DNA of 59,639 bases from Chloroflexota bacterium (GTDB lineage: Bacteria > Chloroflexota > Limnocylindria > Limnocylindrales > CSP1-4), in assembly GCA_031431395.1 (NCBI GenBank), contig JANPDJ010000026.1, positions 1 to 59,639 of the forward strand, in the 5' to 3' direction. Numbering within the stretch: the stretch's first letter is position 1; each line of letters begins with the position of its first letter. The position numbers and the translations under genes are program-made. This document shows, in pieces, positions 1,006-28,053 of the stretch. The notes under the pieces are model-generated. The model ran no database searches and was not told the DNA's origin. It saw only the letters and a program-made list of their open reading frames with translations.

Positions 1006-2666
1006 TCCGGCGCGAGCTGTGGCTGAGCGCCGCCCTGGTCGGGTCGATTGCCCTCGTCGTCCGCGTGGTCGCAGCGTCGTTCGTGCCGTTCCCCATCCCC
1101 GAGGACACCGCCTATTACTACGGGGTCGCGCGAAACCTCGTGGAAGGCCGCGGCCTCGTGAGCGACGCCGCATGGAGCTTCCAGTCCTCCGCGAGCGCCC
1201 TGCCGCGGCCCGCCTTCGAGGTCTGGATGCCCCTGCCGACGCTGCTGGCGGCCATCCCGATGGCGATCCTCGGGACCGACTATCGGGTCGCTCAATCGGT
1301 TGCTGTCCTCATCGGCGCGCTGGTCCCGGTGCTCACCTGGCGCCTGGCGCTGGACGTGGCCCTGGAGCGCGGACTGACGGTCACCCGCGCGCGGGTCCTG
1401 GCGCTGGGCGCGGGGCTCACGGCGGCCGTGGAGTTGCCACTGCTCGTCCATTCGACGCTGCCCGATTCCACCGCGCTGTTCGCGCTCTTCGTGCTCGGTG
1501 CCTGCCTCCTGATGCCGCGCCTGCTCCGGGGTCCGCGGGCGGACCGCTGGCGCGACGAGCTCCGCGATCCGCGACTGATCGGGCTCGGCCTCGCGATCGG
1601 GTTCGCGGCTCTCACCCGGAACGAGGCGATCTGGCTGGCCGGCACCTGGGTGCTGCTGGTCGCGCTGCGCCTCCGGCCTGCCGGCAGCGACGGCGCGATC
1701 GGCCTCTCCTGGGCCATCCGGCTCGTCGCAGTTCCGGCGCTCGTGGCGGCGGCCGTGTTCGCGCCGTGGGCCGTGCGGAACTGGCTCGTCCTGGGAAGCG
1801 TGCTGCCCGGCCAGACCATCACGAACGCGTTTTCTGTGACCGGATTCGACATCTTCGCGTTCCAGGATCCGCCGACCCTGTCGCGCTACCTCGCGGTCGG
1901 CCCGGCCCGGCTGCTCCAGATGCGCGTGGACGGGTTCTCGCACAACCTGCTGACCGTCCTCGTGCTGCCATCGTTCCCGATCGGGCTTCTCGGCCTCTTC
2001 GCGCTGGCAAAGGTCGGCCGTGGCGCGGTCCTCCGCCCGCTGGTCATCGTGAGCGTCGTGATCTTCGCCTTCACCACGCTCGTGTTCCCCGTCGCGACAA
2101 CCTGGGGCACGTACCTGCATGCGGCCGGGGCGGCCCACGTCCTGTTGATCGTCGGCTGTCTGTTCGCGCTTGATGGGCTGATCGTTCGCATCGGCCGCTT
2201 CCGCGGGTGGACTCGGCCAGTGGCATGGCTGGGGCCCGCTCTGACCGTCTTCGGCGCTGCGCTCTTCAGCCTCGCGTTCGTGCCGCAGTTCGGTGCGCAG
2301 TCGCGTGACGTGGCAGCCCGGTACAGGGCGCTGCCGGCCGCCATGACGGCTGCCGGGCTCCCGGCCGTGGCCCGGCTGGGACCGGTGATCTCGGACTTCC
2401 CGATCTGGTGGGCGGAAGGCGAGCGGGCGCCGGCACTGGGCCTGCCCGACGAGTCACCGTCCAGCATCCTCGCCCTGGCCCGAGCGTACCCCGGCACGCG
2501 GTATCTCGTCATCAGCTCGAGCGACCACGGGCGGTGGCCGGGCGTCCTGGCCGAGGGCGGCTCCGATGCCGCATGCTTCCGCGAGGTGGACATCGGCACA
2601 CCGGCAGACGCTGCGACGCGGGCAGCGCTGCAGGGCACGCGTGTATTCGAGTTGATCTGCCGATGA
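1002..2666 (+). CDS. Polytopic membrane glycosyltransferase, GT39/ArnT-like (GT-C fold)
   Basis: 554 aa with many TM helices. The N-terminal loop PIPEDTAYYYGVARNLVEGRGL resembles the acidic first-loop motif of ArnT/PMT-type GT-C enzymes. There is a soluble C-terminal domain. Confidence 0.6.
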   Translation: MIRRELWLSAALVGSIALVVRVVAASFVPFPIPEDTAYYYGVARNLVEGRGLVSDAAWSFQSSASALPRPAFEVWMPLPTLLAAIPMAILGTDYRVAQSVAVLIGALVPVLTWRLALDVALERGLTVTRARVLALGAGLTAAVELPLLVHSTLPDSTALFALFVLGACLLMPRLLRGPRADRWRDELRDPRLIGLGLAIGFAALTRNEAIWLAGTWVLLVALRLRPAGSDGAIGLSWAIRLVAVPALVAAAVFAPWAVRNWLVLGSVLPGQTITNAFSVTGFDIFAFQDPPTLSRYLAVGPARLLQMRVDGFSHNLLTVLVLPSFPIGLLGLFALAKVGRGAVLRPLVIVSVVIFAFTTLVFPVATTWGTYLHAAGAAHVLLIVGCLFALDGLIVRIGRFRGWTRPVAWLGPALTVFGAALFSLAFVPQFGAQSRDVAARYRALPAAMTAAGLPAVARLGPVISDFPIWWAEGERAPALGLPDESPSSILALARAYPGTRYLVISSSDHGRWPGVLAEGGSDAACFREVDIGTPADAATRAALQGTRVFELICR

Positions 2667-2682
2667 ACACGCTCCGTATACT
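2652..2682 (+). promoter_or_regulatory. Candidate promoter TTGATC-19 nt-TATACT, leaderless-type, for the kinase/regulator/flp operon
   Basis: -35-like TTGATC at 2652-2657 and -10 TATACT at 2677-2682. The ATG at 2692 lies 9 nt after the -10, with no Shine-Dalgarno. The spacer is 19 nt, which is long. Confidence 0.35.
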
Positions 2683-2691
2683 CCGAACCTG

Positions 2692-3780
2692 ATGAACGTT
2701 GCGCACGAAAGCACAACGCTTCGTGACGGCCGGTTCGACGGTCTGCACGCCGAGGCAAAGTCCGCCCTCGAATCCGCCCGGAATGTCCTGCGTGACATCC
2801 GTGAGCAGTACGGCAACGACTACCGCCGCGAGTTCGCGAGCTGGCAGTCGTTGCGCAACGAACTCGATGCCGGCATGGGTACTCTTCGGCCGGCGTCCGT
2901 TCGGAACGGCAGTTCGGTGGGCCTTCACCCGGATGCGGACATTCCGGATGCGCGGGCGGGCGAACTCCGAATTGACGTGGAGCGCCTCGCCGCTGCAATC
3001 GGCCGGCATGAGGCCGAGTTGAGCCGCCTCGAGCTGGCCCAGGGCACCATGGACCAAGCGCTGCGCTTCCTGGAGGGTGGCGACGGGACCCCAGCGGCCG
3101 AGGGTGCCCAAGCTCCGTTGTCTGCGGAGGTTGCCCTCCGGATTGTCGAGGCCCAGGAGCACGAGCGGTCGCGGCTTGCGCAGGAGGTCCACGACGGCCC
3201 CGCACAGGCGCTCACGAATGCGATCTTCCAGGTGGAGTACATCGAGCGGGTCATCGATCACGACACCCGGCTGGCCCAGACCGAGCTGGCCTTCCTCCGC
3301 CAGCTGCTCCGCCGCGAGCTGGGCGACGTGCGGACCTTCATCAGCCAGCTCCGGCCGCGGGTGCTGGACCAGCTGGGACTCGACGGGTCCATCCGCGAGA
3401 CGGTGGCGAACATGGCGGCTCTGACGGGCCTTCAGATCGAGGTGGACCTCGACGCTCCCGGCGGGAGCCTGAACGAGGCCGAACAGACCGTGGTCCTCCG
3501 GATCGTCCAGGAAGCGCTCCAGAACGTGCGGAAGCACGCGGAGGCGTCACACGCGATTGTGAGCAGTCGCCTTGACGGCAGCGCATGGATGCTCGAAATC
3601 CGCGACGATGGACGCGGATTTGACGCGAACGACGTCAGCGCCCGGAGCCGGCGGAATTTCGGCCTCCAATTCATGCGCGAGCGGGCTGAGCTCATCGGCG
3701 CCCGCTTCGAGGTCCGGTCCCGTCCGGACGACGGTACGGTCGTCCGGCTGGCCATCCCGTTGCGAGAGGAGAGCAGATGA
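2692..3780 (+). CDS. Soluble DegS-like sensor histidine kinase (HisKA_3 + HATPase_c)
   Basis: H-box EHERSRLAQEVHDGPAQ, N-box QEALQNVRKHA, G1 RDDGRGF, G2 FGLQFMRERA. No TM segment and a coiled-coil-like N-terminus. Confidence 0.85.
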   Translation: MNVAHESTTLRDGRFDGLHAEAKSALESARNVLRDIREQYGNDYRREFASWQSLRNELDAGMGTLRPASVRNGSSVGLHPDADIPDARAGELRIDVERLAAAIGRHEAELSRLELAQGTMDQALRFLEGGDGTPAAEGAQAPLSAEVALRIVEAQEHERSRLAQEVHDGPAQALTNAIFQVEYIERVIDHDTRLAQTELAFLRQLLRRELGDVRTFISQLRPRVLDQLGLDGSIRETVANMAALTGLQIEVDLDAPGGSLNEAEQTVVLRIVQEALQNVRKHAEASHAIVSSRLDGSAWMLEIRDDGRGFDANDVSARSRRNFGLQFMRERAELIGARFEVRSRPDDGTVVRLAIPLREESR

Positions 3781-4520
3781 GCATGGAATATGGCGGCGCG
3801 GATCGTCGTCGGGGTGGACCCGACCGTCGCGGGCCGGACGAGCAGACGAGGATCCTCCTCGTGGACAACCACGCCCTGTTCCGCGTGGGCATGCGCAACA
3901 TCCTGGAACGCGAGCCGGATTTCCTCATCGTGGGAGAGGCATCAGACAGCCGCGGTGCCATCGACCTCGCGGTGAACCTCAGCCCCGACATCATCCTCAT
4001 GGATCTCAACCTGGGCGCACCGGGCGGAATCGAGACCACCCAGCGGATCAAACGTGAGTTGCAGCCGGCCGGGATCATCGTCCTGGCCGTCACCGAGGAC
4101 GAGGAAGCGCTGTTCGACGCCATCAAGGCGGGGGCGGCAGCCTTCATCCTCAAGGATGTCGGGCCCGACGACCTCGTCACGATCATCCGGCGCGTGTCCG
4201 ACGGCGAGTACCTGATCAACGACAAGGTCTTCGCCAAGCCGGCCGTCGCGTCGCGCGTCCTGAAGGAGTTCCGCGAACTCGCGGTCTACGGCCAGGATGC
4301 GGCGCCCATCTTTGCGCCTCTGTCACCGCGCGAGGTCCAGATCCTCGACAACATCGCCCAGGGCATGACAAACAAGCAGGTGGCCTACGCACTGTCAATC
4401 AGTGAGCAGACCGTCAAGAACCACATGAGCTCGATTCTGCGCAAGCTGTCCGTGAACGACCGGACGCAGGCCGTCGTGTATGCGATGCGCCAAGGCTGGA
4501 TCAGGATGCCGGACGATTGA
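3777..4520 (+). CDS. NarL/LuxR-family response regulator (REC + HTH_LuxR)
   Basis: The receiver is RILLVDNHALFRVGM...IILMDLNLGAPGG. The C-terminal LuxR HTH is LSPREVQILDNIAQGMTNKQVAYALSISEQTVKNHMSSILRKL. The start overlaps the kinase stop (ATGA). Confidence 0.9.
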   Translation: MSMEYGGADRRRGGPDRRGPDEQTRILLVDNHALFRVGMRNILEREPDFLIVGEASDSRGAIDLAVNLSPDIILMDLNLGAPGGIETTQRIKRELQPAGIIVLAVTEDEEALFDAIKAGAAAFILKDVGPDDLVTIIRRVSDGEYLINDKVFAKPAVASRVLKEFRELAVYGQDAAPIFAPLSPREVQILDNIAQGMTNKQVAYALSISEQTVKNHMSSILRKLSVNDRTQAVVYAMRQGWIRMPDD

Positions 4521-5893
4521 ACGAACGTAGCGACGGTCACGGGGAGCCTGCCCCGGCCGGTGAGAGGCCGGTGGGAGACGGACCGGCAGATGACGGAGCG
4601 GCCGGCACCCGCCGCACCCAGCCCGGCGGCAACCCGCCAGGCGGGGCTTCGATGGCGGACCTTGCGGGGCGGGTCCGCGCGGAACACCACCTGCTGGAAA
4701 CGGAGCTCAGCGAGATCGAACTCCTGGTCCAGCAGGCCAGGACGGAAGCCACGCGGCACGAGGCGAAGCGGTCAGCCGCGGCCGACCGCTTCGCGGCGCT
4801 GAGCCCAGGGACCAGCCCAGCGGATGTCGCAGATCAGAGCAAGCAGCTCGTCACGCTCACGCGACGCGCCGTGGTGATGCAGACGCAGGTGGACGTGCTC
4901 GAGGGCAAACTCAAGGTCCTCCAGCGCTTTCGCGATGCGTCCGCTCGAACGGCCGCGGACCTGGACGCATTGGGCGGCGACGGCGCCGGCGGCCGGGCGG
5001 CCGGAACGAGACCTCCTCGGGGGTCCGGCCGCGCGGCCGGCTCCGGTCAGGGCTTTGAAGCCGACGGTGGGGGTGGCGCCGTCATGCCGCTGGCGATGTC
5101 GCGCATGCTCCTCGGCGCGCAGGAGGACCTGCGACGCGAGATTGCCCGGACGATGCACGATGGTCCGGCCCAGAGCCTCACGAACATCGTGCTCCAGGCC
5201 CAAATCGTGGATCGACTGTTTGCCCGGGACCCTGCCAGCGCGGCAGCGGAGGTCCGGCAACTGATCTCGATGGTCCAGCAGACCCTTGACGCCACCAAGT
5301 CCTTCATCTTCGACATCCGTCCCATGGTCCTCGACGATCTCGGCCTCGTCCCCACGATCCGTCGCGCGGCGAGGGAGCGCGGCCGTCGCGCCCAGATCCC
5401 GGTGGAGTTCGAGTCCTACGGCACCGGTCGGCGCCTCACGATGGAGCTTGAGAGCGGTCTCTTTCGCATCATCGACGAGGCACTCGCCGCATACCTCGCC
5501 GGCCGGCCGGACCTCGTCACGATCCGGCTCGACTGGACCGACGGGCTGGAGGCACGGATCGCGGCCCGCCGGCCCGCTTCGGCACCGTTCGAAGCCGATG
5601 CGCCGTCGCCTGCGGCTTCAGCAGCCGACGCGGCACGCGACGAGGGCTCCCGCCGTCGGAGCAGGAGCACGGCCTCTCAGCAGCCGCCGGAGGCGATGCC
5701 GGCGGCGCTCGTCGCCATGATCGAGGACCGCCGCGTGGCGGACACGGCTGCCAAGCGGGCCGTCGGCGCGATCCCGGTCGCGATCCACCGCGAGATCCAG
5801 CAGCGGGCCGACGCCCTCGACATCGTCCTGGAGCTGGCCGAGGACGGTCGCGAGATCCGGCTCGTGATCGAGGCGCCGGCCGACGCGGGATGA
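4517..5893 (+). CDS. HisKA_3-containing kinase-like protein with a degenerate catalytic domain (pseudokinase / phosphotransfer candidate)
   Basis: The H-box EDLRREIARTMHDGPAQ and the following FIFDIRPMVLDDLGL parallel the upstream kinase. The N-box position reads IIDEALAAYLAG, and no DxGxG or GxGL boxes are visible. The N-terminus is coiled-coil. The TTG start overlaps the regulator stop. An alternative ATG exists at 4652. Confidence 0.7.
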   Translation: MNERSDGHGEPAPAGERPVGDGPADDGAAGTRRTQPGGNPPGGASMADLAGRVRAEHHLLETELSEIELLVQQARTEATRHEAKRSAAADRFAALSPGTSPADVADQSKQLVTLTRRAVVMQTQVDVLEGKLKVLQRFRDASARTAADLDALGGDGAGGRAAGTRPPRGSGRAAGSGQGFEADGGGGAVMPLAMSRMLLGAQEDLRREIARTMHDGPAQSLTNIVLQAQIVDRLFARDPASAAAEVRQLISMVQQTLDATKSFIFDIRPMVLDDLGLVPTIRRAARERGRRAQIPVEFESYGTGRRLTMELESGLFRIIDEALAAYLAGRPDLVTIRLDWTDGLEARIAARRPASAPFEADAPSPAASAADAARDEGSRRRSRSTASQQPPEAMPAALVAMIEDRRVADTAAKRAVGAIPVAIHREIQQRADALDIVLELAEDGREIRLVIEAPADAG

Positions 5894-6090
5894 AGATGCT
5901 CCCCCCGGGCGTGATCGGCGGACAGCTGCGATGGCCGGCCGGCCGCGGCGACGCGGGGCAGGGCATCGTGGAATATGGCCTCATCCTCGGGCTCGCGGCA
6001 CTCGTCACCGTCATCTCGCTGGTGTTCTTCGGAGGCGCGCTGGCGGTGGCGCTGAGTCTGCTCGGCCAGGCAATCGATTCATCGAGCTGA
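5890..6090 (+). CDS. flp: Flp-family type IVb prepilin 1
   Basis: The motif G/QGIVEYGLILGLAALV fits the Flp signature G-XXXX-EY followed by a hydrophobic helix. The ATGA overlaps the stop of the upstream gene. An alternative ATG exists at 5896. Confidence 0.75.
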   Translation: MKMLPPGVIGGQLRWPAGRGDAGQGIVEYGLILGLAALVTVISLVFFGGALAVALSLLGQAIDSSS

Positions 6091-6233
6091 CCGGCACGGA
6101 TGCGTGACGCGTCGCGCCCATGACCAGCGAGCAAGACCGTCCCGTACGAAAGACCTAGTGCGTTTCCGAGATTCCCGTTGGACAGTGATGCCGTCCTCGA
6201 TCGAGGGCACTGCACTTATCGGGAGAACCGGAA

Positions 6234-6404
6234 ATGACACTCGTGAACACGCTCCTCGCCAAGTTCCGCCGGGATGAAGACGGCCAGGGTCTCGCCGAGT
6301 ACGCGCTGATCCTCGCCCTCATCGCGATCGTTGCGATCGTCGCGCTGATCTTCCTGGGCGGCCAGGTCAGCACGATCCTGAGCAAGGTCGGCACCTCGGT
6401 CTAG
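6234..6404 (+). CDS. flp: Flp-family type IVb prepilin 2 (56 aa, absent from the ORF track)
   Basis: My translation is MTLVNTLLAKFRRDEDGQGLAEYALILALIAIVAIVALIFLGGQVSTILSKVGTSV. It has the Flp motif G/QGLAEY. A GGGAG sits 8 nt upstream of the ATG, and the TAG stop is at 6402-6404. Confidence 0.85.
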   Translation: MTLVNTLLAKFRRDEDGQGLAEYALILALIAIVAIVALIFLGGQVSTILSKVGTSV

Positions 6405-6528
6405 GACCGTCAAGCGAGGGGCGCCGGGGATCCCCCAGGGACCTCCGGCGCATTCTCGTTCTTGACGACCCGGGGGAGGCCCGCCGGCCCACGCGCCGGC
6501 CGAGTCGATCCCGAAGGGAGCCCCGATC

Positions 6529-6696
6529 ATGCCCTTGCTTCGGCGCCTCATCCGCGAATGGGGCAGCGAGCGGGGTCAGGGCCTCGTCGAGTACGCGCTC
6601 ATTCTGTCGCTCATCGCGATCGTGGCCATCGTCGCCCTGGCCTTTCTCGGGAACACAGTATCCGCAGAACTCAGCAAGATCGGCGTCGCGCTCTGA
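6529..6696 (+). CDS. flp: Flp-family type IVb prepilin 3 (55 aa, absent from the ORF track)
   Basis: My translation is MPLLRRLIREWGSERGQGLVEYALILSLIAIVAIVALAFLGNTVSAELSKIGVAL. GAAGGGAG lies upstream of the ATG, and the TGA stop is at 6694-6696. It is a close paralogue of flp2. Confidence 0.85.
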   Translation: MPLLRRLIREWGSERGQGLVEYALILSLIAIVAIVALAFLGNTVSAELSKIGVAL

Positions 6697-6710
6697 CGCC
6701 AACAGCACTC

Positions 6711-6739
6711 ACGGGGTCGTGGCTCAGCCACGGCCCCGT
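6711..6739 (+). terminator. GC-rich hairpin 15 nt after flp3 (terminator/attenuator candidate)
   Basis: A 13-bp stem ACGGGGTCGTGGC / GCCACGGCCCCGT (one G-U pair) with a 3-nt loop, followed by TCGCATTTCCC. The U-tract is weak. Confidence 0.4.
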
Positions 6740-6898
6740 TCGCATTTCCCGGGCCAGCCGCTGCAAGCCCGATGCGGATTCGGACGGACAGGGCCCGATC
6801 ATCCCCTCCCCACGGCTCTCGCAGGAGCTTCCGCGGGGAGCACAGCCGGGCGGATCTGGACACCAGGGCGCCGTCCGACCGCCGGCCGGTGCGATTTC

Positions 6899-6926
6899 TT
6901 CCTAGCGGGTCCTAGCCCTTTAGTAT
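6899..6926 (+). promoter_or_regulatory. Candidate promoter TTCCTA-16 nt-TAGTAT upstream of cpaB
   Basis: This is the only AT-rich island in the 296-bp flp3-cpaB spacer. The -10-like TAGTAT is at 6921-6926. It is embedded in CTAG-containing repeats. Confidence 0.3.
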
Positions 6927-6992
6927 AGGTGCCGGACCCTAGGCCCGGCCCTACGCTGGTGCCACCTGTCACACCACTCGGGAGCAATCGCC

Positions 6993-7886
6993 TTGAAGCG
7001 GTCCAATCGCCTCGTTCTGTTCGTCGGCATCCTGCTCGCGGTCGTCGCGTTCGGCAGTGTGATCGTCCTGTTCAACCAGAAACCTGCGCCCGTCAGTACG
7101 GCTCCAACGGAGCTGCCGACGGTCTACGCCAGGCAGGACATCGCACTCGGGACGGTCATCACCAGGGACATGGTGGAAGCCCGCAACCTCGCCATCCCCG
7201 TCCGCCCCACGGACGCGTTCGGTGACATCGGCGTCGTGGTCGGCAAGACCGTTCGCACGGAGATCAAGCAGGGAGCCCTGCTGCTGCCGGCGGACTTCTC
7301 TGCCGGCGCGGGCGGAGGATCGCAGGACGTCGCCCGCCTGCTGGAGCCCGGGCTTCGCGCCATCGCGGTCCAGGTGGACCAGGCAACGGGCGTCGGCACA
7401 CTGATCAACGTGGGCGACCGCGTGGACATGGTGGTGGGCTTCACCGCGGACAAGGTCCCGCTCGTGACCATAGACCCCACGACGAAGCTGCTGACAAGCG
7501 TGACCGGCTACAACCCGACCACGACGAAGGTCCTCCTCCAGAACATGCAGGTCATCGGCACGCTCCTGCCGCCGGCGCCCGCCGCGGCTGCGACCGGGAC
7601 CGGCACAACCGCCCCCGCGACGGGAGCCAGCCTGACCGGCCAGCAGGAGCTCGTGATCCTCGCGGTCACTGCCCAGCAGGCCGAGGTGATCAAGTTCGCC
7701 CAGATCGACGGGCTCATCAGCCTGGTGCTGCGCTCGCCCAAGGACTTCGTGGACGCGAATGGCAACCCCATCGTGCCCGAGGCGGTCAAGACGAACGGCG
7801 TCGTGCTCAAGACCCTCATCGACAAGTTCGGGGTGCTGCCGCCGGAAGTGATCCCGGCCCAGAACCTCCCCACCGCCGCCCCCTGA
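6993..7886 (+). CDS. cpaB: Flp pilus assembly protein CpaB/RcpC (SAF domain)
   Basis: An N-terminal TM anchor (LVLFVGILLAVVAFGSVIVL) is followed by the SAF-like segment ARQDIALGTVITRDMV...GKTVRTEIKQGALL. TTG start with GGGAG upstream. Confidence 0.8.
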   Translation: MKRSNRLVLFVGILLAVVAFGSVIVLFNQKPAPVSTAPTELPTVYARQDIALGTVITRDMVEARNLAIPVRPTDAFGDIGVVVGKTVRTEIKQGALLLPADFSAGAGGGSQDVARLLEPGLRAIAVQVDQATGVGTLINVGDRVDMVVGFTADKVPLVTIDPTTKLLTSVTGYNPTTTKVLLQNMQVIGTLLPPAPAAAATGTGTTAPATGASLTGQQELVILAVTAQQAEVIKFAQIDGLISLVLRSPKDFVDANGNPIVPEAVKTNGVVLKTLIDKFGVLPPEVIPAQNLPTAAP

Positions 7887-7941: not shown

Positions 7942-9189
7942 ATGCCTGACCAGATCCGCGTTCTGATCGTCGACGACATCCCCGAGACCCGGGACCACCT
8001 GACCAAACTGCTCGGCTTCGAGTCCGACATGCTGGTCGTTGGCGCGGCATCCTCCGGGCTGGAGGCGATCGCGCTCGCAACCTCGCTCCTGCCCGATGTG
8101 GTCCTGATGGACATCAACATGCCGGATATGGACGGGATTGCCGCGACGGAGCAGCTCTCATCGACCGTCCCCACGACTGCCGTGGTGATGATGTCGGTCC
8201 AGGGCGAAGCGGACTACCTGCGGCGGTCGATGCTGGCCGGGGCGCGTGAGTTCCTCGTCAAGCCCTTCAGCAGCGACGAACTGTCGTCATCCATTCGCCA
8301 GGTCTGGGCTCGCGAACGCGACAAGGTTTCCCGCCTTGCCCCGCGGGCACCGGTGGCAGCGCCGGCCAGTGGGCCTCGGACGCACCGGCGGGGCCAGATC
8401 GTGGCGTTCTTCAGCCCCAAGGGTGGCGTGGGCCGGACAACGATGGCGGTGAACTCGGCGGTGAGCGCAGTCACCGAGCTCGGCAAGAGGGTCTGCCTGG
8501 TGGACGCGTCGTTCCAGTTCGGCGACGTGGGCGTCATGCTGAACCTCAACCCGAGGAACATGTCCATTGCCGATCTCGTGCCGGAACTGACGGCCGGCGC
8601 GGAGATGGACGCGGTGGATACGTTCGTCGTTACGCACTCCTCCGGCGTGCGGGTCCTGCTCGCGCCGCCGTCACCCGAAATGGCCGAGCTGATTACTGCT
8701 GCCAACATCAAGCAGATCCTCGAGGCCCTGGCTGCGGAACACGACCTCGTCTTCGTGGACTGCGCGCCCGGGATCACCGATGCGAACCTGGCGATCCTCG
8801 ACCTCGCCGACGTGATCCTTGCGATGCTGACGCTGGAGATCACCAGCATCAAGAACATGCGCCTCTTCCTCGAGATCAGCGAACGGCTGGGGTACGAAGA
8901 GGGCAAGGTCAAGCTGGTCCTCAACCGCGCGGACGGCAACCTGGGTATTCGCGTGGCCGATGTCGAACATTCGATCGGGCGCAAGGTGGACTACACGATC
9001 GTCAGCGACGGCCGCAGCGTCGTCTACGCCCTCAATCGCGGCATTCCATTCGTCCTGACCAGCAAGGAGACGCAGGTCTCTCAGGACGTCTTCAGCCTGA
9101 CCCGTGCGGTCGCCGGCGAGCTCGATCTGCCCAGCAGTGAAGAGATCCAAAAGCCTGCTCCCCGCAAGTCACTGTTCGCGTGGCGCTGA
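7942..9189 (+). CDS. cpaE: CpaE/TadZ: receiver domain fused to a MinD/ParA-type ATPase
   Basis: The REC domain is RVLIVDDIPETR...VVLMDINMPDMDG...FLVKPF. The deviant Walker A is FFSPKGGVGRTTMAVN. Confidence 0.85.
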   Translation: MPDQIRVLIVDDIPETRDHLTKLLGFESDMLVVGAASSGLEAIALATSLLPDVVLMDINMPDMDGIAATEQLSSTVPTTAVVMMSVQGEADYLRRSMLAGAREFLVKPFSSDELSSSIRQVWARERDKVSRLAPRAPVAAPASGPRTHRRGQIVAFFSPKGGVGRTTMAVNSAVSAVTELGKRVCLVDASFQFGDVGVMLNLNPRNMSIADLVPELTAGAEMDAVDTFVVTHSSGVRVLLAPPSPEMAELITAANIKQILEALAAEHDLVFVDCAPGITDANLAILDLADVILAMLTLEITSIKNMRLFLEISERLGYEEGKVKLVLNRADGNLGIRVADVEHSIGRKVDYTIVSDGRSVVYALNRGIPFVLTSKETQVSQDVFSLTRAVAGELDLPSSEEIQKPAPRKSLFAWR

Positions 9190-9284: not shown

Positions 9285-10703
9285 ATGTCCCTCCTGAAGC
9301 GGATCGAGAGCGCCCGACCCGGCATGGGTCCGGCCGGTGTGCCCGGCACCCCCACACCGGTCACGACGGGAGTCCCGTCCTCACCGGGAGGCGCGCCGCC
9401 CACGCTGACCCAGGCTCAGCGGATGGTCACCCAGGCCCCGGTCCGCGAGTCGTTCCGGGATGTGAAGTTCCGCATCCAGGGCCGCGTCATTTCCGACCTG
9501 GACCCCAAGCTCGACCTGTCCAACCAGGTCGAGGTTCGCCGCCAGATCGAGGAGATCTTCGGCAAGGTCGTCGACGAAGAAGGCCTGGCCCTCACGCGCG
9601 CCGAGCGCGTGCGTATGCTCGAGCAGATCACCGACGAGATCATCGGCCTTGGTCCGCTTGAGCCGCTCCTCCGCGACGAGAGCGTCACGGAAATCATGGT
9701 CAACGGCCCGCGCCAGGTCTTCATCGAGCGCAGCGGCAAGATCGAGCTCACGAATGTCGTGTTCCAGAACGACGACCACGTGATGCGGATCATCGACCGG
9801 ATCATCGCCCCCATCGGCCGGCGGATCGACGAATCCAGCCCCATGGTTGACGCCCGGCTCACGGACGGGTCGCGGGTGAACGCGATCATTCCCCCGCTGT
9901 CGCTCATCGGGCCGGTGATCACGATCCGGAAGTTCTCCGCATCGCCCTTCACGGTGGACGACCTCGTCCGCTTCGGCACTGCGACGCCCGAGATGTTCGA
10001 CTTCCTGAGGGCCTGCGTGGAAGCGCGGCTGAACGTCTTCGTGTCGGGCGGCACGGGCTCCGGCAAGACCACCACGCTGAACGTGCTGTCCTCGTTCATC
10101 CCCACGGACGAACGGATCGTGACGATCGAGGACGCCGCTGAACTCCAGCTGCGCCAGGAACACGTGGTCACGCTGGAGAGCCGCCCGCCCAACATCGAGG
10201 GCAAGGGCGCGATCCCCATCCGCGAACTGGTCCGCAATGCCCTGCGCATGCGCCCCGATCGCATCATCGTCGGCGAGTGCCGGTCCGGCGAAGCCCTGGA
10301 CATGCTCCAGGCCATGAACACGGGCCACGATGGCTCCATGTCCACCGGCCACGCGAACAGCCCGCGCGACATGCTCGCCCGTCTCGAGACGATGGTCCTC
10401 ATGGCCGGCGTGGACCTGCCGCTGCGGGCCATCCGCGAGCAGGTGTCGTCCGCCGTGGACGTGATCGTCCAACAGAGCCGCCTCAAGGATGGCACCCGCC
10501 GGATCGTCGCCATCACGGAGGTCCAGGGCATGGAGGGCGACACCATTGTGATGCAGGACGTCTTCTCGTTCGAGCAGACGGGCTACGTCGACGGAATCAT
10601 CCAGGGCCGCCTCAAGCCAACCGGCATCCGGCCCAAGTTTGTCGAGAAGTTCGAGGCGATGGGAATCCGTCTGCCCCCGGGCCTGTTCGGCTTCAGCTAC
10701 TAG
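9285..10703 (+). CDS. cpaF: CpaF/TadA secretion ATPase
   Basis: Walker A VSGGTGSGKTTTLN, Walker B RIIVGECRSGEA, His box GHDGSMSTGHAN. GAGGAG lies upstream of the ATG. Confidence 0.92.
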   Translation: MSLLKRIESARPGMGPAGVPGTPTPVTTGVPSSPGGAPPTLTQAQRMVTQAPVRESFRDVKFRIQGRVISDLDPKLDLSNQVEVRRQIEEIFGKVVDEEGLALTRAERVRMLEQITDEIIGLGPLEPLLRDESVTEIMVNGPRQVFIERSGKIELTNVVFQNDDHVMRIIDRIIAPIGRRIDESSPMVDARLTDGSRVNAIIPPLSLIGPVITIRKFSASPFTVDDLVRFGTATPEMFDFLRACVEARLNVFVSGGTGSGKTTTLNVLSSFIPTDERIVTIEDAAELQLRQEHVVTLESRPPNIEGKGAIPIRELVRNALRMRPDRIIVGECRSGEALDMLQAMNTGHDGSMSTGHANSPRDMLARLETMVLMAGVDLPLRAIREQVSSAVDVIVQQSRLKDGTRRIVAITEVQGMEGDTIVMQDVFSFEQTGYVDGIIQGRLKPTGIRPKFVEKFEAMGIRLPPGLFGFSY

Positions 10704-10724
10704 TCAGGAGAGGAAACGCCCGAC

Positions 10725-11735
10725 ATGGAACCCACAACGCTCGTCATCGCAGGGGTGGCAGCGCTGGCGATTCTCCTGATCGCCTTCGGCGCGGCAAGCT
10801 CCGGCGGCGGCGCCGGCATCAATGCCCGCCTGGAGCGGTACGCCTCCAGCAAGGACGACGTCACCCGCCCGGCCTCACAGCAGAACCTTGGCGAGCTGAT
10901 CTCCGGGAGCGAGGCGATCAGCACCTTCAACAAGGCGATGGAGCAGCGGGACTTCGGCGCCAACCTTGCCCGCGATATCGCTCGCGCCGACCTTCGCCTC
11001 AAGGTCAGCGAATACCTGATGATCTGGGCCGGGTCCACGGTTGCCGTGCCCCTCATCTTCCTGCTGCTGGGCTTTGTCCTGCCTGCCCTCGGTAGCCCGA
11101 TCGCGCTGCTGTTCGGGCTCTTCGTCGGTTTCATCCTCCCAGGCAAGTGGCTCGGCCGGCGCAAGGGCAGCCGCCACAACGCGTTCAACAAGCAGCTTCC
11201 GGACACGATCATGCTGATCGCGAACGCGTTGCGGGCCGGCTCATCCTTCCTCCAGGCCATCGAGCTGGTCGTGCGCGAGGCGCGCCCACCGATCTCCACC
11301 GAGTTCAGCCGGGTGATCCGCGAGGTCAACCTGGGTCTCCCGTTCGAGACCGCGCTCGAGAACATGGTTCGTCGTGTCCGCTCCGACGACCTGGAGCTGA
11401 TGGCCACAGCCATCAGCATCCAGCACACGGTCGGCGGGAACCTGGCCGAGATTCTCGACTCCATCGCGTTCACGATCCGCGAGCGGATCCGGATCAAGGG
11501 CGAGATCCGGACGCTGACGGCGCAGCAACGCCTGTCGGGCTACGTGGTGGGCTTCCTGCCCATCAGCCTCGCCGGGTTCCTCTTCGTCGCCGCTCCGGGC
11601 TTCATGGAGCCCATGTTCGCCAACCCACCTGCCGTCCTGGGTCTTCCGGCCGGCGTCGTCGGCCTGTGCTTCGGCGGCTTCATGATGTTCATTGGCTTCA
11701 TGTTGATCCGCAAGATCGTGGACATCGAGGTCTAG
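10725..11735 (+). CDS. tadB: TadB (type II secretion system F-family inner membrane protein)
   Basis: An N-terminal TM helix, a cytoplasmic T2SSF-like domain (LPDTIMLIANALRAGSSFLQAIE) and C-terminal TM helices. It sits directly after cpaF. Confidence 0.85.
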   Translation: MEPTTLVIAGVAALAILLIAFGAASSGGGAGINARLERYASSKDDVTRPASQQNLGELISGSEAISTFNKAMEQRDFGANLARDIARADLRLKVSEYLMIWAGSTVAVPLIFLLLGFVLPALGSPIALLFGLFVGFILPGKWLGRRKGSRHNAFNKQLPDTIMLIANALRAGSSFLQAIELVVREARPPISTEFSRVIREVNLGLPFETALENMVRRVRSDDLELMATAISIQHTVGGNLAEILDSIAFTIRERIRIKGEIRTLTAQQRLSGYVVGFLPISLAGFLFVAAPGFMEPMFANPPAVLGLPAGVVGLCFGGFMMFIGFMLIRKIVDIEV

Positions 11736-12665
11736 TTGATGGCTCTACTGCCGATCCTCGTCGCAGGCGTCGCGGGCGGCGCCATCCTCCTGATCGTCCT
11801 CGGGCTCGCGGGCAACGCGCCCATGGACCCTGTCAGGGCCCGGCTCGTCCAGCTCGGGTCGATGCAGGCCCGAAACCTGGAGGAGCTGGAGCTCCAGCAG
11901 CCGTTCTTCGAGCGCACCATCCGGCCGCTCGCAACGAGGCTGTCGGGCACGGTCAACAAGATCACCTCGGCGTCCTTCGTCGCGACCACCCAGAAACGGC
12001 TGGCCATGGCCGGCAACCCGGCCGAGCTGTCCGTCATGGACTGGCTGGGAATGAAGGCGGTATTCGCGATCATCTTCGCCGGCATCGGTGGCCTGCTCAC
12101 CCTCGTCCTCGGGATGCCGATCGTGATGACTCTGGCCTTTGGCGGCCTCGGCCTCGGGATCGGCTACATCGGCCCCGAATTCTGGCTTGGCAAGCGGGTG
12201 AAGGGCCGGCAGAAGGCCATCCTGCGCATGATCCCGGACTCACTGGACCTGCTCACCATCTCCGTCCGCGCCGGGCTCGGCTTCGATGCCGCGCTGGCCA
12301 AAGTGGTGGAGAAGGTCAAGGGGCCCCTGTCCGACGAGTTCCGTCGGGCCCTGGCCGAGGTGCGCGTGGGCAAGCAGCGCCGCGAGGCCCTGCGGGACAT
12401 CGTTCCCCGAACGGACGTCGCACCGCTCACCAACTTCATCGGGGCGATCATCCAGGCCGAGCAGTTGGGCGTTTCGATCAGCAAGGTGCTACAGGTCCAG
12501 TCGGAGCAGCTTCGCATCGAGCGGCGCCAGCGAGCGGAGGAAATGGCCGCGAAGGCGCCGATCAAGATGCTGTTCCCGCTGGTCGGCTGCATCTTCCCGT
12601 CCCTGTTCATCGTCATCCTGGGTCCGGCGGTCATCCTGATCGTGCAGAACTTCTCGCAGTCGTGA
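11736..12665 (+). CDS. tadC: TadC (type II secretion system F-family inner membrane protein)
   Basis: A paralogue of the preceding gene (IPDSLDLLTISVRAGLGFDAALAKV) with TM helices at both ends. Confidence 0.85.
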   Translation: MMALLPILVAGVAGGAILLIVLGLAGNAPMDPVRARLVQLGSMQARNLEELELQQPFFERTIRPLATRLSGTVNKITSASFVATTQKRLAMAGNPAELSVMDWLGMKAVFAIIFAGIGGLLTLVLGMPIVMTLAFGGLGLGIGYIGPEFWLGKRVKGRQKAILRMIPDSLDLLTISVRAGLGFDAALAKVVEKVKGPLSDEFRRALAEVRVGKQRREALRDIVPRTDVAPLTNFIGAIIQAEQLGVSISKVLQVQSEQLRIERRQRAEEMAAKAPIKMLFPLVGCIFPSLFIVILGPAVILIVQNFSQS

Positions 12666-13048
12666 CGACCGCTGCTCCCGGCAGCGCACACAACGTCACC
12701 CGGAACGCACCGCTGGCGACCTCCCTGGAGGTCGCCACGTCGTTCTGGGCGAAGTTCATGGGGCTGATGGGGCGCGCGACGCTGCCACCGGGGGCCGGTC
12801 TCTGGCTCGGCGGCACCAACAACATCCACATGATGTTCATGCGGTTTCCCATCGATGCCGTGTTCCTGGGCGCCGCCGCCACGGACGGCACGCGGCAGGT
12901 GGTCCAGCTCCGGCGGTCCATGCGGCCCTGGACCGGCGTGGTCTGGTTCGCACGCGGAGCGGAGGGCGTGATCGAATTGCCGGCCGGCGCGATCGATGCG
13001 TCCGGCACGGCCATGAGCGACTCGATCCGGCTCGCCGGCGTCGCGTAG
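12662..13048 (+). CDS. DUF192-like protein
   Basis: The GTG overlaps the tadC stop (GTGA). The segments ATSFWAKFMGLMGR...GLWL...IHMMFMRFPIDAVFL...ELPAG fit the DUF192 pattern. The start is uncertain. This is the C-terminal part of a longer track ORF whose upstream portion overlaps tadB/tadC. Confidence 0.6.
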   Translation: MTTAAPGSAHNVTRNAPLATSLEVATSFWAKFMGLMGRATLPPGAGLWLGGTNNIHMMFMRFPIDAVFLGAAATDGTRQVVQLRRSMRPWTGVVWFARGAEGVIELPAGAIDASGTAMSDSIRLAGVA

Positions 13049-13122
13049 ACCCAAGGATCATCGGTGACCGCCGGATACGTCCCCGATGAGTCGCGGATAC
13101 GTGCCGGTGTTGTGCCGCCCGA

Positions 13123-13134: not shown

Positions 13135-13845
13135 ATGCCAGCTGCTTCATCCGTACAGCCTCGGGGCCCGTTCGGGCGTGCGCGCCGGATCGGAGGACAG
13201 CTCCTGGACCTCGCGCTTCCGGCCCGGTGCCCGGGTTGCGGCAGTGAGGGTGCGCCCATCTGCGCCGGCTGCCGTCCGCAACTCTTCGAGCGGCTCCGGC
13301 GGCCCGGTGGAACCCTCCTCGGCCTCCCGGCCGGGATTCCGGAGCCGCTGATTCAGCTCGAGTGGTGCGCGCCGTTCGAGGGCCTGGTGAGAACGGCCCT
13401 CCACGCCCTCAAGTACGGTGGGGAACGCCGCCTGGCGTGGGTCCTGGGTGAGGCGATTGCGCAGCGGTGGCGATCTGCCGGGTCCGGCGGGAGCGTGCTG
13501 GTGCCGGTGCCGGTCCACCGGGATCGTGCGCGTGAGCGCGGCTACGACCAGGCCGTGATGCTCGCCCGGCCGGCCGGAATCGGGCTGGGGCTGCCGGTGA
13601 CAACCGCGCTGGAGCGGACGCGCGCGACCACCGCACAGTTCCGTCTGGACCGGCGCGACCGGTCGGCGAACGTCGCTCGGGCGTTCGCCGTGCGGCCGGG
13701 CGCGGAAGCCGGCGTCGCGGGCCAATGGGTCGTGCTGGTCGACGACGTGGCCACCACGGGCGCCACGCTGGCCTCGTGCGCACGGTCACTCCTTGAGGCA
13801 GGCGCCATGGCGGTGTCGGCCGTGACCGTCGCGAGGGAGCAGTAG
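13135..13845 (+). CDS. comF: ComF-family phosphoribosyltransferase-domain protein
   Basis: An N-terminal zinc-finger-like CPGCGSEGAPICAGC and the PRTase motif VVLVDDVATTGATL. Confidence 0.8.
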   Translation: MPAASSVQPRGPFGRARRIGGQLLDLALPARCPGCGSEGAPICAGCRPQLFERLRRPGGTLLGLPAGIPEPLIQLEWCAPFEGLVRTALHALKYGGERRLAWVLGEAIAQRWRSAGSGGSVLVPVPVHRDRARERGYDQAVMLARPAGIGLGLPVTTALERTRATTAQFRLDRRDRSANVARAFAVRPGAEAGVAGQWVVLVDDVATTGATLASCARSLLEAGAMAVSAVTVAREQ

Positions 13846-14187: not shown

Positions 14188-14778
14188 GTGAGAACGGTCG
14201 TCAAGGGCAAGAACATCGAGATCCCGGAGCGTGTTCGCGAGTACGGCGAACGGAAGCTGAGCCGCATCGAGCGTTTGCTGGACGACCGCAGCGATGCGCT
14301 GCTGGAGTTGTCGGTAGAGCAGCATCGGAGCGTGGATGCCTCGCACATCGCCGAGGTGACGCTGGTCATCGACGGCCAGACGCTGCGCAGCCATGCCGCC
14401 GGGCCGACGCACCAGGCGGCCATCGACATTGTGACGGACAAGGTGGAACGCCGCGCCGTTGACCACCAGCAGAAGCCCCTCAGCGAGCGCGGCCCGGAGG
14501 GCCGCCAGGTTCTGGAGCGCCTGGCCGATGGCACCACGGATGGCGTTGCAGACCGGCGGATCGTCAAGACCAAGCGGTTCGGGATCAAGCCGATGTTCGA
14601 TGAGGACGCCGTCGCGGAGATGGAGGAGCTCGGCCACGCCTTCTATATCTTCGTCAACGCCGAGAACGAGCGGATCAACGTCGTGTACAGGCGAGCCGAT
14701 GGCAATTACGGCGTCATCGAGCCGATGATCGAAGGCCACGCGCCGGCCCGCGCCGCTCGGGGCACACAACGAGCCTGA
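14188..14778 (+). CDS. hpf: Ribosome hibernation promoting factor, long form
   Basis: The N-terminal S30AE domain is VVKGKNIEIPERVREYGERKLSRIERLL. The C-terminal dimerisation domain is KTKRFGIKPMFDEDAVAEMEELGHAFYIFVNAENERINVVYRR. GTG start with GGGAGG upstream. Confidence 0.85.
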   Translation: MRTVVKGKNIEIPERVREYGERKLSRIERLLDDRSDALLELSVEQHRSVDASHIAEVTLVIDGQTLRSHAAGPTHQAAIDIVTDKVERRAVDHQQKPLSERGPEGRQVLERLADGTTDGVADRRIVKTKRFGIKPMFDEDAVAEMEELGHAFYIFVNAENERINVVYRRADGNYGVIEPMIEGHAPARAARGTQRA

Positions 14779-22772: not shown

Positions 22773-24311
<1,539 letters not shown>

Positions 24312-25163
24312 CTAACGGGCGCGTGCGCCTGTGGCGATCTCGATCATTTCGCGGGTGATGTTGGCCTGGCGGACCTTGTTGTACGAGAGCGTCAGGTCTT
24401 CGATCAGTTCCTCGGCATTGTCCGTGGCGTTCTTCATCGCGACCATCCGGCTGGACTCCTCGCTCGCCTTCGCCTCGAGGACCGCCTGGTAGAGACGGGT
24501 GGCCACGTAGCGCGGCAGAAGCTGCTCCAGGACCGCCGCCGGATTGGGCTCGAAGATGAACTGGTTCCCGGGGATGCCTGAGGTGTCGCCCGACGCCTGG
24601 ATGGGCAGCATGCGGTACAGCGTGGGCCGCTGCGTGAGCGTGGACACGAAGTGGCTGTAGACGATGTCGATCCGGCCGGCCGAGCCGGACAGGAAGTCAT
24701 CCGTGACGAGTCGCGAGAGCGGGACTACATCGGCGAACGTCGGCCGATCCCCGAAGCCGTCGAAGTGCGCCTCGATCGGCACGCCGGCGCGGCGCATCGC
24801 GTCGCGACCCTTGCGGCCCACGGTGACCAGCGACAGGTTCCCGCGGTCCTCGATGATCTGCTGTGCCGTGAACCGGACGAGGTTCGAGGTGAACGGTCCG
24901 GCCAGTGGCCGGTCCGTGGAGATCAGCACGATGAGGCGCTTGCCCTCGGACCGCTGGGCCAGGAGCGGGTGCTCCTCGCCGCTCAGCACGGTGGCGAGGT
25001 CGGCAAGGACCTCGTCAAGCTTCTCGGCGTACGGGCGGGACGCCAGCGTCGCATCCTGTGCGCGCCGCAGCTTGGACGCTGCCACGAACTGCATCGCCCG
25101 CGTGATCTGGCGGATGTTCCGGACCGACCCGATGCGGCGCCGGATCTCCCGCTGACTAGCCAT
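24312..25163 (-). CDS. atpG: F1 ATP synthase gamma subunit
   Basis: The conserved N-terminus MASQREIRRRIGSVRNIRQITRAMQFVAASKLRRAQ begins at the internal ATG (25163). The track ORF extension to 25241 was trimmed. Confidence 0.9.
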   Translation of the reverse strand: MASQREIRRRIGSVRNIRQITRAMQFVAASKLRRAQDATLASRPYAEKLDEVLADLATVLSGEEHPLLAQRSEGKRLIVLISTDRPLAGPFTSNLVRFTAQQIIEDRGNLSLVTVGRKGRDAMRRAGVPIEAHFDGFGDRPTFADVVPLSRLVTDDFLSGSAGRIDIVYSHFVSTLTQRPTLYRMLPIQASGDTSGIPGNQFIFEPNPAAVLEQLLPRYVATRLYQAVLEAKASEESSRMVAMKNATDNAEELIEDLTLSYNKVRQANITREMIEIATGARAR

Positions 25164-25306
25164 TCTGAACGCCCCATGTTGCGCGCGGCGACGTTGCGGC
25201 GGCCCGAGGCAAGGCGCCGGCGAGCACGCGGGCGTGCGCACTCGGTCGTGCGTGAGCGAGTGAGCGGAGGCGGCAACGCCGTATCGGGGCGATCACAGCG
25301 TTGCCG

Positions 25307-26839
<1,533 letters not shown>

Positions 26840-26879
26840 GCGTTCTCCGATCGGGTGCAGGCGCTCGCTGGGGCGGCGA

Positions 26880-27434
26880 TCAGCCGCCGACGCGGGCTCC
26901 TGCCAGAAGCTGCTCCCGGAGCCGCTCCAGGCGGCCCCGCACACTTGCGTCGATGAGGCGATCGCCGATCTTCACGGTGAGACCGCCGATGAGCGCGGGA
27001 TCCACGGCGGTCTGGACATCGACCGTGGTGCCGGTGAGTTGCGCGACGCGAGCCCGGATGGCCGTGTCCTCGTCGCCGGTGAGTGGTGTGGCGCTGGTGA
27101 CGAGCGCCGACACGATGCCGCGCTCCCGGTTGAGCAGCCGCTGGTATTCGGCCGCGATGGGCCCCAGCAGGTCGAGATTGCCGCGCTGCACAAGCAGGCG
27201 GACCAGGTTGAATGCGGGCTTCGAGATGCGGCTGGCGAGCAGCTGCTCAACGATCGTCTCGCGCTCGGAGAGCGGTTTCATCGGGCTCTTCACGACACGG
27301 GCGACCTGCTCGTTGGCCGTGACCTCGGCCGCAAGTCGCAGGTCGTCGCGCCAGCGATCCAGCGCGTTGTCACGACCGGCGATCTCGAAGACCGCCTCGG
27401 CGTAGCGACGGGGCGCGCTCCCTCCGCGGGCCAT
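26880..27434 (-). CDS. atpH: F1 ATP synthase delta (OSCP) subunit
   Basis: [12 protein letters not shown]...[23 protein letters not shown]. The start is at the internal ATG 27434. Confidence 0.85.
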
Positions 27435-27453
27435 CAGCGCCTCTCCCCGGCCA

Positions 27454-28035: not shown

Positions 28036-28053
28036 GTTGACGATCCGCCTGCG

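Follow-up and report, generated by a model that had tools for sequence, protein, structure and literature searches.

Which process is controlled by a string of two-component genes that runs straight into the first prepilin gene of a flp/tad pilus locus? The question is raised by a 59,639-nt stretch of DNA (hereafter the window, to whose whole length all coordinates refer) from an uncultured soil Chloroflexota bacterium of the class Limnocylindria, in which four genes follow each other as listed here:

2692-3780, + strand: kinase gene, 362 aa, with an N-terminal region, a HisKA_3 dimerization and histidine phosphotransfer (DHp) domain (H-box VHDGPAQ) and an intact HATPase_c domain.
3777-4520, + strand: response regulator gene, NarL/LuxR family, 247 aa, with Response_reg and GerE domains.
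4517-5893, + strand: third gene, predicted to encode a pseudokinase, 458 aa, TTG start, HisKA_3 only.
5890-6090, + strand: flp1-type gene (66 aa), whose product is a Flp-like prepilin paralogue of divergent sequence.

The explanation that we favour, and that we hold to be probable though by no means secure, is that these genes form a lineage-conserved Chloroflexota signalling module at the head of the tad/flp cluster, that the major pilin genes stand under its regulator, and that the pseudokinase sets the output of the module.

The string had been picked out in an earlier reading of the window (the original prediction), whose coordinates and overlaps agreed exactly with the open reading frame (ORF) table and the sequence. 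ATGA at 3777-3780 combines the kinase stop with the regulator start, TTGA at 4517-4520 the regulator stop with the TTG start of the third gene, and ATGA at 5890-5893 the third-gene stop with the flp1 ATG, all four frames being backed by a third-codon-position GC of 0.82-0.85. The domain architecture proposed at the same time (HisKA_3, HATPase_c, receiver and LuxR-type helix-turn-helix) was likewise recovered with Pfam: the kinase matched HisKA_3 (PF07730) at 55.9 bits, against a cut-off of 24, and HATPase_c (PF02518) at 47.8 bits, the regulator matched Response_reg (PF00072) at 78.3 bits and GerE (PF00196) at 79.8 bits, and the third protein had HisKA_3 as its sole Pfam domain (49.5 bits). Alignment to intact kinases revealed an N box (QEALQNVRKHA), a G1 box (DDGRGFD) and a G2 box (GLQFMRERA) in the kinase, whose family retains every catalytic box, in contrast to the family of the third gene, and the regulator carries an Asp at the counterpart of CheY D57. 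No transmembrane segment was found in the kinase or in the third protein (maximal 19-residue hydropathy, KD19, of 0.74 and 1.13, respectively, with no window above 1.6), so that both would be soluble, as had been proposed. Furthermore, no protein of the triad belongs to a named NCBIfam equivalog, all matches lying far under the cut-offs. By their domains and motifs, the kinase and the regulator are predicted to form a NarL-type two-component system, with phosphotransfer between them.

The third gene appears to encode a pseudokinase in which the DHp domain and a fold resembling the catalytic and ATP-binding (CA) domain have been kept, and the ATP-binding N and G1 boxes have been lost. In an alignment of 21 family members with an overall identity of ~50%, the H-box HDGPAQ and MHDGPAQSLTNI are invariant, and about 100 columns are invariant in total, concentrated in the DHp domain and clustering at residues 195-292 (MHDGPAQSLTNI...FIFDxRPMVLDDLGLVPT). 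The N-box position, on the other hand, reads FRxxDEALAAYL, without Asn, and a variable low-complexity insert occupies the G1/G2 region and takes the place of the ATP lid. Among the best 120 of more than 3,400 database relatives of the third protein, none matched HATPase_c and all were HisKA_3-only; these proteins are 268-470 aa long (mostly ~400-470 aa), and those few that bear a name belong to Limnocylindrales/Chloroflexota. When the family was compared using hhalign with intact Anaerolineae kinases carrying DegS, HisKA_3 and HATPase_c domains, the two aligned with a probability of 100 (E 2.8e-51) from the N-terminal coil across the DHp domain into the start of the CA domain, with third-gene residues 41-155 aligned to the PF05384-bearing N-termini. 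In this alignment an Ala stands opposite the invariant N289 of the intact kinases, and the match stops before their invariant DDGxGF (G1). The pseudokinase label of the original prediction is thereby borne out, the N-box Asn being replaced and the G1 box absent. We also considered whether the label could be an artefact of Pfam sensitivity, which was ruled out by this motif-level alignment to intact orthologues. As for the description of both kinase-like proteins as DegS-like, it applies to the third gene, whose family aligns with DegS kinases including the N-terminal coil, but neither protein matches the Pfam DegS sensor domain (PF05384) at E<=0.01.

Structure prediction pointed in the same direction. 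The AlphaFold (AF2) model of the third protein, with a pLDDT of 75 overall that is low in the insert, comprises a helical hairpin (residues 46-155), the DHp hairpin (192-267), an alpha/beta domain (277-451) and a disordered insert (~352-395). Its best Foldseek matches were cytoplasmic domains of DesK (E 1e-6), and isolated CA domains of DesK, DosS and VraS were also matched (target-normalised TM-score 0.51-0.71), with DivL too among the matches.

Could the third gene nevertheless be what is left of a duplicated kinase that has lost its function and is decaying, and the string no more than ordinary operon packing in a high-GC genome? The missing ATP-binding motifs and the low-complexity insert in place of the ATP lid would fit such a remnant, and 4-nt overlaps are frequent in compact operons. 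However, a profile search of 1.8 billion representatives returned 365 clusters at 50% identity with E<1e-30 for the third gene, which argues that it is under selection and not decaying; full-length copies occur in at least 540 species genomes, the frame is intact in every locus examined, and the invariant columns are concentrated in the DHp domain. A remnant is thus strongly disfavoured, to the point that we would be surprised if it proved correct. Profile matches near E 1e-50 were intact kinases with Pfam DegS, HisKA_3 and HATPase_c domains. Taken together, these results depict the third gene as derived from a DegS-type kinase, under selection and ATP-blind, and as still possessing the phospho-accepting His with the DxxxQ motif beside it.

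The origin of the triad can be approached through four Anaerolineae loci (L086, L088, L089 and L090; genomes of 43-50% GC). L088, L089 and L090 encode two membrane proteins, a HisKA_3 kinase, a regulator and an intact DegS-type kinase; the regulator is 49-51% identical to that of the window, and the membrane proteins, which match PMT_2 weakly, are 25-30% identical to the products of two genes upstream of the window kinase, up1 and up2. L086 has a single PMT_2-like membrane protein, divergently transcribed, together with a regulator and a DegS-like gene, and no first kinase. Because this arrangement is shared by Limnocylindria and Anaerolineae loci, the triad of kinase, regulator and second kinase, together with the pair of membrane-protein genes, must be older than the divergence of two or more Chloroflexota classes, and the ancestral third gene, as represented by the Anaerolineae state, would have been an ordinary intact kinase. 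A separate observation concerns L086, in which the DegS-type third gene (P0265, at 10001-11086; 45% GC, in an Anaerolineae-like genome of 6.1 Mb) has lost the HATPase_c motifs independently, the 119 nearest relatives of P0265 all being intact kinases.

Downstream of the third kinase gene, TadE-domain genes follow directly in three of the four Anaerolineae loci (L086, L088 and L090), with a Tad/VWA (von Willebrand factor A) protein also encoded downstream in L088 and L090, whereas L089 has unrelated genes at this place and no Tad gene. The regions concerned are the following:

L086, 11366-20118: TadE-region genes.
L088, 11411-21057: TadE-region genes.
L090, 11393-20990: TadE-region genes.

Proteins with a Tad-type prepilin N-terminus thus appear to be the usual downstream neighbours of the triad even though the neighbourhoods differ, and of all the observations at hand this recurrence speaks most strongly for a functional link. 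The TadE proteins themselves are giants of 1,400-1,800 aa with an N-terminal TadE (pseudopilin-like) domain, and their companions are a Tad/VWA protein of ~900 aa in L088 and L090 and a 1,092-aa protein weakly matching CLIPPER in L086.

Within Limnocylindria the gene order is uniform. A scan of one genome per species identified a relative of the third gene in 540 genomes, and the loci of the best 80 of these 540 were compared; by their labels all 80 are Chloroflexota, mostly Limnocylindria/Limnocylindrales or 'uncultured Chloroflexia', and four are Anaerolineaceae. When all window proteins were searched against the related loci by tblastn, the order up2-up1-kinase-regulator-pseudokinase-flp (1-5 copies)-cpaB-tadZ-tadA-tadB-tadC-comF-like-hpf was retrieved in every sufficiently long locus of the 80 genomes. 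The original prediction had held that a complete lack of synteny between triad and tad genes in relatives would speak against it, and the opposite was found. Identity to the window in these comparisons is typically 82-93% for the regulator across Limnocylindria loci and ~85-90% for TadA, and lies at ~55% for the kinase and ~50% for the pseudokinase. Such conservation of the regulator would fit a conserved DNA target. Two divergent representatives, P0243 and P0163, lie on contigs of <=2 kb with little context, and P0243 looks frameshifted.

The junctions between the genes recur to different degrees. The kinase and the regulator overlap by 4 nt (-4) in 60 of 77 related loci, and the third gene and the first Flp-like ORF do so in 27 loci and are spaced within -4 to +15 nt in 57 of 84; the regulator and the third gene overlap by 4 nt in only 7 loci, the distance being mostly a gap of +5 to +53 nt. 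By the recurrence of the kinase/regulator and third-gene/flp1 junctions, the overlaps exceed chance in a comparative sense. The flp1 product has the sequence GQGIVEYGLIL (G-x4-EY), followed by a hydrophobic helix, and no Pfam match. It belongs to a distinct paralogue type (GQGxVEYG..., with IGxAIDxx at the C-terminus) that in most loci directly follows the pseudokinase gene and has at least 55 copies by strict pattern. The G/XXXXEY processing motif and the hydrophobic helix are present in all three flp genes of the window, the other two of which, with the non-coding features around them, are as follows:

6144-6233, + strand: conserved non-coding block before flp2, with GTAC at 6144, CTAGTG at 6155-6160, a -10-like GACAGT at 6181-6186, a hairpin at 6195-6206 and a Shine-Dalgarno sequence GGGAG at 6221-6225.
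6234-6404, + strand: flp2, major-type Flp pilin gene, 56 aa, Flp_Fap 30.2 bits (below the 32.2-bit cut-off), 60-88% identical to the pilins of relatives.
6408-6467, + strand: terminator-like hairpin after flp2, -42.2 kcal/mol, z = -5.5, with 0 of 200 shuffles as stable.
6529-6696, + strand: flp3, major-type Flp pilin gene, 55 aa, Flp_Fap 23.9 bits (below the same cut-off).
6711-6739, + strand: hairpin after flp3, -30.6 kcal/mol, z = -2.9.

Are the pilin genes, then, transcribed together with their presumed regulators? Major-type flp genes, which carry GQGLAEYALILALIAIVAIVALIFLGGQVS..., are preceded by promoter-like sequences in many relatives. A consensus of 25 flp upstream regions reads GGTACCATC..GCTAGTG-N~21-C.TATA.TGGC..AGCCCTC..GAGGG..ACTCATCCAGGAGG, and TTGACR-N16-18-TAnnnT occurs before 59 of the 144 major flp genes of relatives at a fixed position, with a median of -84 from the ATG (0.1 in shuffles), with a GTAC...CTAGTG-type block before another 20, window flp2 included (0.0 in shuffles). 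At window flp2 the hexamer is GACAGT where relatives have TACAGT or TATAGT, and it was missed by the TAnnnT rule; the original prediction that neither flp2 nor flp3 is preceded by TAnnnT is literally true of both intergenic regions. The block before flp2 is a candidate for a combined activator site, promoter and 5′ untranslated region. Upstream of flp3 there is a TTGACG (6462-6467), -35-like as before many major flp genes of relatives, which lies inside the flp2 hairpin and is not followed by TAnnnT at 16-18 nt. Hairpins also distinguish the two gene types, 70-nt regions more stable than -30 kcal/mol being found after 84% of the major flp genes, often with T-runs in relatives, and after 25% of the flp1-type genes, compared to 22% of background windows; no hairpin follows flp1 in the window (z = 0.25). 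Since conserved promoter-like blocks stand before, and hairpins after, the major flp genes, independent flp promoters are likely. Co-transcription of the pilin genes with their regulators, as originally proposed, thus probably applies to the translationally coupled flp1, but the major pilin genes, with promoter-like blocks and terminator-like hairpins of their own, would form their own units. At E<=1, no more than two Rfam matches were obtained in 2300-7300, both at chance level, so that the conserved flp 5′ regions correspond to no known riboswitch or RNA family. Reading the conserved ACTCATCC upstream of flp as a NarL heptamer (TACYYMT) was indistinguishable from chance.

The assembly genes that follow include a second place at which the signal might enter:

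6993-7886, + strand: cpaB/RcpC gene, RcpC 56.6 bits plus SAF, TIGR03177 (pilus_cpaB) 108 bits, above the cut-off of 71.
7942-9189, + strand: tadZ, encoding a CpaE-type ParA/MinD ATPase, Response_reg 99.4 bits plus AAA_31/ParA, with the receiver at the N-terminus (7942-8340).
9285-10703, + strand: tadA, T2SSE 218.9 bits.
10725-11735, + strand: tadB, T2SSF 70 bits.
11736-12665, + strand: tadC, T2SSF 74 bits.

In 63 of 63 Limnocylindria sequences TadZ has the same residues at the positions of CheY D12, D13, D57, K109 and T87 (here a Ser), and the closest solved structures to the receiver are VraR, CheY, Spo0A, NarL and DesR. By these residues and matches, the TadZ receiver is canonical, looks phosphorylatable, and would be nearest to NarL-family receivers. 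The locus as a whole encodes exactly two His-bearing DHp proteins and two canonical receivers. A secretin gene is absent from the tad/flp cluster. As for a prepilin peptidase (TadV/CpaA, Peptidase_A24), none is annotated in the clusters of relatives, and none was found by a motif search and by Pfam on part of the window (ten further genes). Those ten genes are housekeeping genes (ATP synthase delta and gamma, L21, Sua5, a ParA-like protein and others), and so is the rest of the window (22773-29440, - strand; 44861-45694), with ATP synthase delta/OSCP and gamma, Sua5/YrdC, L21, a ParA-type ATPase, a PHP-domain protein and an MprF-like LPG_synthase_TM protein. After tadC, the conserved order continues with a DUF192-like ORF (~12690-13050, absent from the ORF list), a ComF-like phosphoribosyltransferase/zinc-ribbon gene (13135-13845) and hpf (14188-14778). 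Tad pili drive DNA uptake in Micrococcus (PMC8467076), and by analogy a competence role for this pilus is conceivable.

How might the module work? According to the explanation that we favour, the kinase would phosphorylate the regulator, and the phosphorylated regulator would activate the separately promoted flp2 and flp3 through the GTAC...CTAGTG block, and may also act on the assembly genes. Lying ~20 to 40 nt before the -10-like hexamer, the GTAC...CTAGTG element occupies the position expected for a bound activator, and the near-invariant regulator is the obvious candidate for this role. The pseudokinase, unable to autophosphorylate, would most likely be a signal-gated phosphatase or a binding partner of the phosphorylated regulator via its DHp domain, possibly also acting on the TadZ receiver, and would thereby set the output level; the TadZ receiver would provide a second, post-translational input into pilus assembly. 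In bifunctional kinases the DHp domain alone suffices for phosphatase activity, for which the HisKA_3 DxxxQ motif beside the His is required. Phosphotransfer as in Spo0B/ChpT, or inhibitory heterodimerisation, is also possible for the pseudokinase. Covariation between DHp and receiver specificity residues could not serve to assign kinase-receiver pairs, as the DHp domain of the pseudokinase is almost invariant.

A different role for the pseudokinase would be that of a Spo0B/ChpT-like phosphotransferase, or of a trans-phosphorylated heterodimer partner, which relays phosphate between the LuxR regulator and TadZ in a self-contained phosphorelay. Spo0B and ChpT likewise combine a His with a CA-like fold without ATP motifs, as the pseudokinase does with its invariant His, and the equal numbers of His-bearing proteins and canonical receivers in the locus would suit a relay, as would the TadZ receiver being closest to the partners of HisKA_3 kinases. 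Yet no specific similarity to Spo0B or ChpT was seen among the Foldseek matches of the pseudokinase model (no homology search was aimed at them), the top structural matches being to the bifunctional kinase DesK, and neither sequence nor fold shows a preference for these phosphotransferases. Moreover, with an intact kinase as the ancestral Anaerolineae state, loss of kinase activity with retention of phosphatase activity would be the simpler step, and we therefore regard a relay as doubtful. Equally tentative is a wider scheme in which the kinase His, the pseudokinase His, the regulator Asp and the TadZ Asp would form a four-part phospho-network, with the pseudokinase acting as a phosphotransferase or phosphatase toward TadZ and so switching assembly post-translationally alongside pilin transcription. 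For Tad pili no such switching by phosphorylation at the TadZ/TadA platform has been described, and their TadZ receivers are taken to be non-phosphorylatable.

The other side of the triad has also to be considered, the genes and the promoter-like sequence upstream of the kinase being these:

106-1005, + strand: up2, membrane-protein gene, third-position GC 0.86, resembling the C-terminal part of PMT_2-like, glycosyltransferase (GT) C-type proteins of relatives.
1002-2666, + strand: up1, polytopic membrane protein gene, 554 aa, third-position GC 0.89, 78 hydrophobic 19-residue windows.
2652-2682, + strand: promoter-like TTGATC-N19-TATACT, with TTGATC at 2652-2657 and TATACT at 2677-2682, ending 9 nt before the kinase ATG.

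The up2 product has no Pfam or NCBIfam match of its own, and is 44-70% identical by tblastn to its counterpart in ~70 loci, where the gene of the relatives carries PMT_2. Between the end of up1 and the kinase ATG there are 25 nt in the window. In related loci the two genes overlap, by 4 nt (-4) in 47 of 70 and by 1 nt (-1) in 11 of 70, and as the two closest relatives (73% and 67% identity) also have the overlap, the gap of the window is an exception. The promoter proposed for the kinase exists as far as its sequence and its 9-nt distance are concerned, but it is probably not the operon start, given the overlap in 58 of the 70 relatives and a '-35' TTGATC that sits in coding sequence and is not conserved. 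Its 19-nt spacer is outside the 16-18 nt range, a TTGAY-N-TAnnnT pattern precedes the kinase in 0 of 60 related loci, and TATACT recurs, as CCCGTATACTCGA, only in L012 and L056, the sole other loci with a 24-25 nt spacer. A consensus promoter/terminator scan of 2300-7300 gave no promoter and a single weak terminator-like site, which was antisense; shuffles gave more. At most, the element could thus serve as an internal promoter from which a near-leaderless kinase mRNA would arise, and, because the kinase start overlaps the membrane-protein gene in most relatives, the operon probably starts further upstream. The spacer itself (2667-2691 in the window) has CC(C)GTATACTC in common with those of L012 and L056, which are not especially close relatives, and all other loci, the closest included, have the 4-nt or 1-nt overlap instead.

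This arrangement raises the possibility that the triad serves the upstream membrane glycosyltransferase-like genes, that is, envelope or protein glycosylation, and that its adjacency to flp/tad is merely inherited gene order. In relatives, the GT-C-like pair faces a GT87/GT2/GT87 cluster transcribed divergently from the operon (L001, 852-8158; L091, 1466-8164), and together they resemble a polyprenyl-phosphate-sugar glycosylation cluster whose targets might be pilins or the envelope. Several points weigh against the pilus module, and some of them count for glycosylation. The kinase is coupled even more tightly to up1, the up1/kinase overlap being tighter than the regulator/pseudokinase junction, and the membrane pair and the triad persist in L089 without a downstream Tad gene, so that the primary target could be the envelope or glycosylation genes. 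The whole block of ~20 kb is syntenic, including the unrelated comF-like and hpf genes, and as gene order is generally conserved in the class, within-class synteny says little on function. Regulation of flp and tad is, moreover, something that we infer from position only, the -10 hexamers of flp2 and flp3 are weak or missing in the window, and the GTAC...CTAGTG block has neither clear dyad symmetry nor a match to a known NarL-family site. Finally, the simplest guess for the pseudokinase, a kinase-minus, phosphatase-plus modulator, is one of several possibilities. Against glycosylation as the primary role stand the TadE/Tad-domain genes found right after the third kinase gene in three of four Anaerolineae loci with otherwise differing neighbours, the close coupling of the pseudokinase gene to flp1 in 57 of 84 loci, and the NarL-like canonical receiver of TadZ. 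We accordingly consider it unlikely, although a serious competitor, that glycosylation is what the triad primarily serves; the two roles are not exclusive, since the GT-C proteins could modify pilins. A signalling module for the pilus is still the explanation that we prefer.

Limnocylindria are abundant, uncultured Chloroflexota of soil and freshwater, and no paper in the searchable literature mentions both the class and pili. That literature likewise holds no description of the Chloroflexota kinase-regulator-DegS-like triad, of the change that turned the third member into a pseudokinase in Limnocylindria, of the coupling of the triad to a specialised Flp paralogue, or of a canonical receiver on TadZ. 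The analysis provides a class-wide regulatory parts list for Limnocylindria Flp pili, comprising a predicted active kinase, a highly conserved regulator, a His-invariant ATP-blind paralogue, candidate promoters and operators, and a phosphorylatable-looking TadZ. Two questions are thereby made testable, namely what a HisKA_3 pseudokinase reduced to its DHp domain does, for which the intact Anaerolineae orthologue offers a natural comparison, and whether Tad pilus assembly is gated by TadZ phosphorylation.

How does the locus compare with systems already known? PprA is a PAS-containing HisKA-type kinase. According to PMC3510237 (citing Bernard et al. 2009), the PprA-PprB pair lies inside the flp-rcp-tad locus of P. 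aeruginosa and positively controls flp and tad units that have their own promoters. The likeness to the window is that a kinase/regulator pair is encoded within a Flp pilus locus; the Pseudomonas system differs in having no third kinase-like gene and no coupling to a pilin gene, and in belonging to a diderm locus with a secretin. In Pectobacterium, ECA0785/ECA0786 form a two-component system that flanks the flp/tad cluster, and its regulator is required for expression of flp, rcpA and tadA (PMC3767616); that regulator is of the OmpR family, its kinase is of the BaeS type, there is no pseudokinase, and the host is a Gammaproteobacterium. Hence the statement of the original prediction that tad regulators are encoded elsewhere holds only for the two models that it named, and a regulatory system embedded in a tad locus is not a new principle, having already been established in Proteobacteria.

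For the proteins themselves other comparisons apply. The Bacillus DegS-DegU system likewise pairs a soluble kinase that has a coiled-coil N-terminus and a HisKA_3 DHp domain with a regulator of the NarL/LuxR family, whereas in the window two kinase-like genes, one of them predicted to be catalytically dead, flank the regulator gene. Spo0B, ChpT and DivL resemble the pseudokinase in combining a DHp four-helix-bundle element with a CA-like alpha/beta domain in which ATP binding has been lost; in DivL a Tyr replaces the His. The pseudokinase of the window differs from all three in that it keeps a full HisKA_3 H-box with DxxxQ, its closest folds being those of DesK. Finally, the window TadZ follows TadZ/CpaE proteins in having an N-terminal receiver fold fused to a ParA/MinD-type ATPase and in being encoded between cpaB and tadA. 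TadZ receivers are, according to the discussion of a preprint (bioRxiv 10.64898/2026.07.08.737194), typically described as atypical and non-phosphorylatable, whereas in the TadZ of the window and its Limnocylindria relatives all five residues of the phosphorylation chemistry have been kept without exception.

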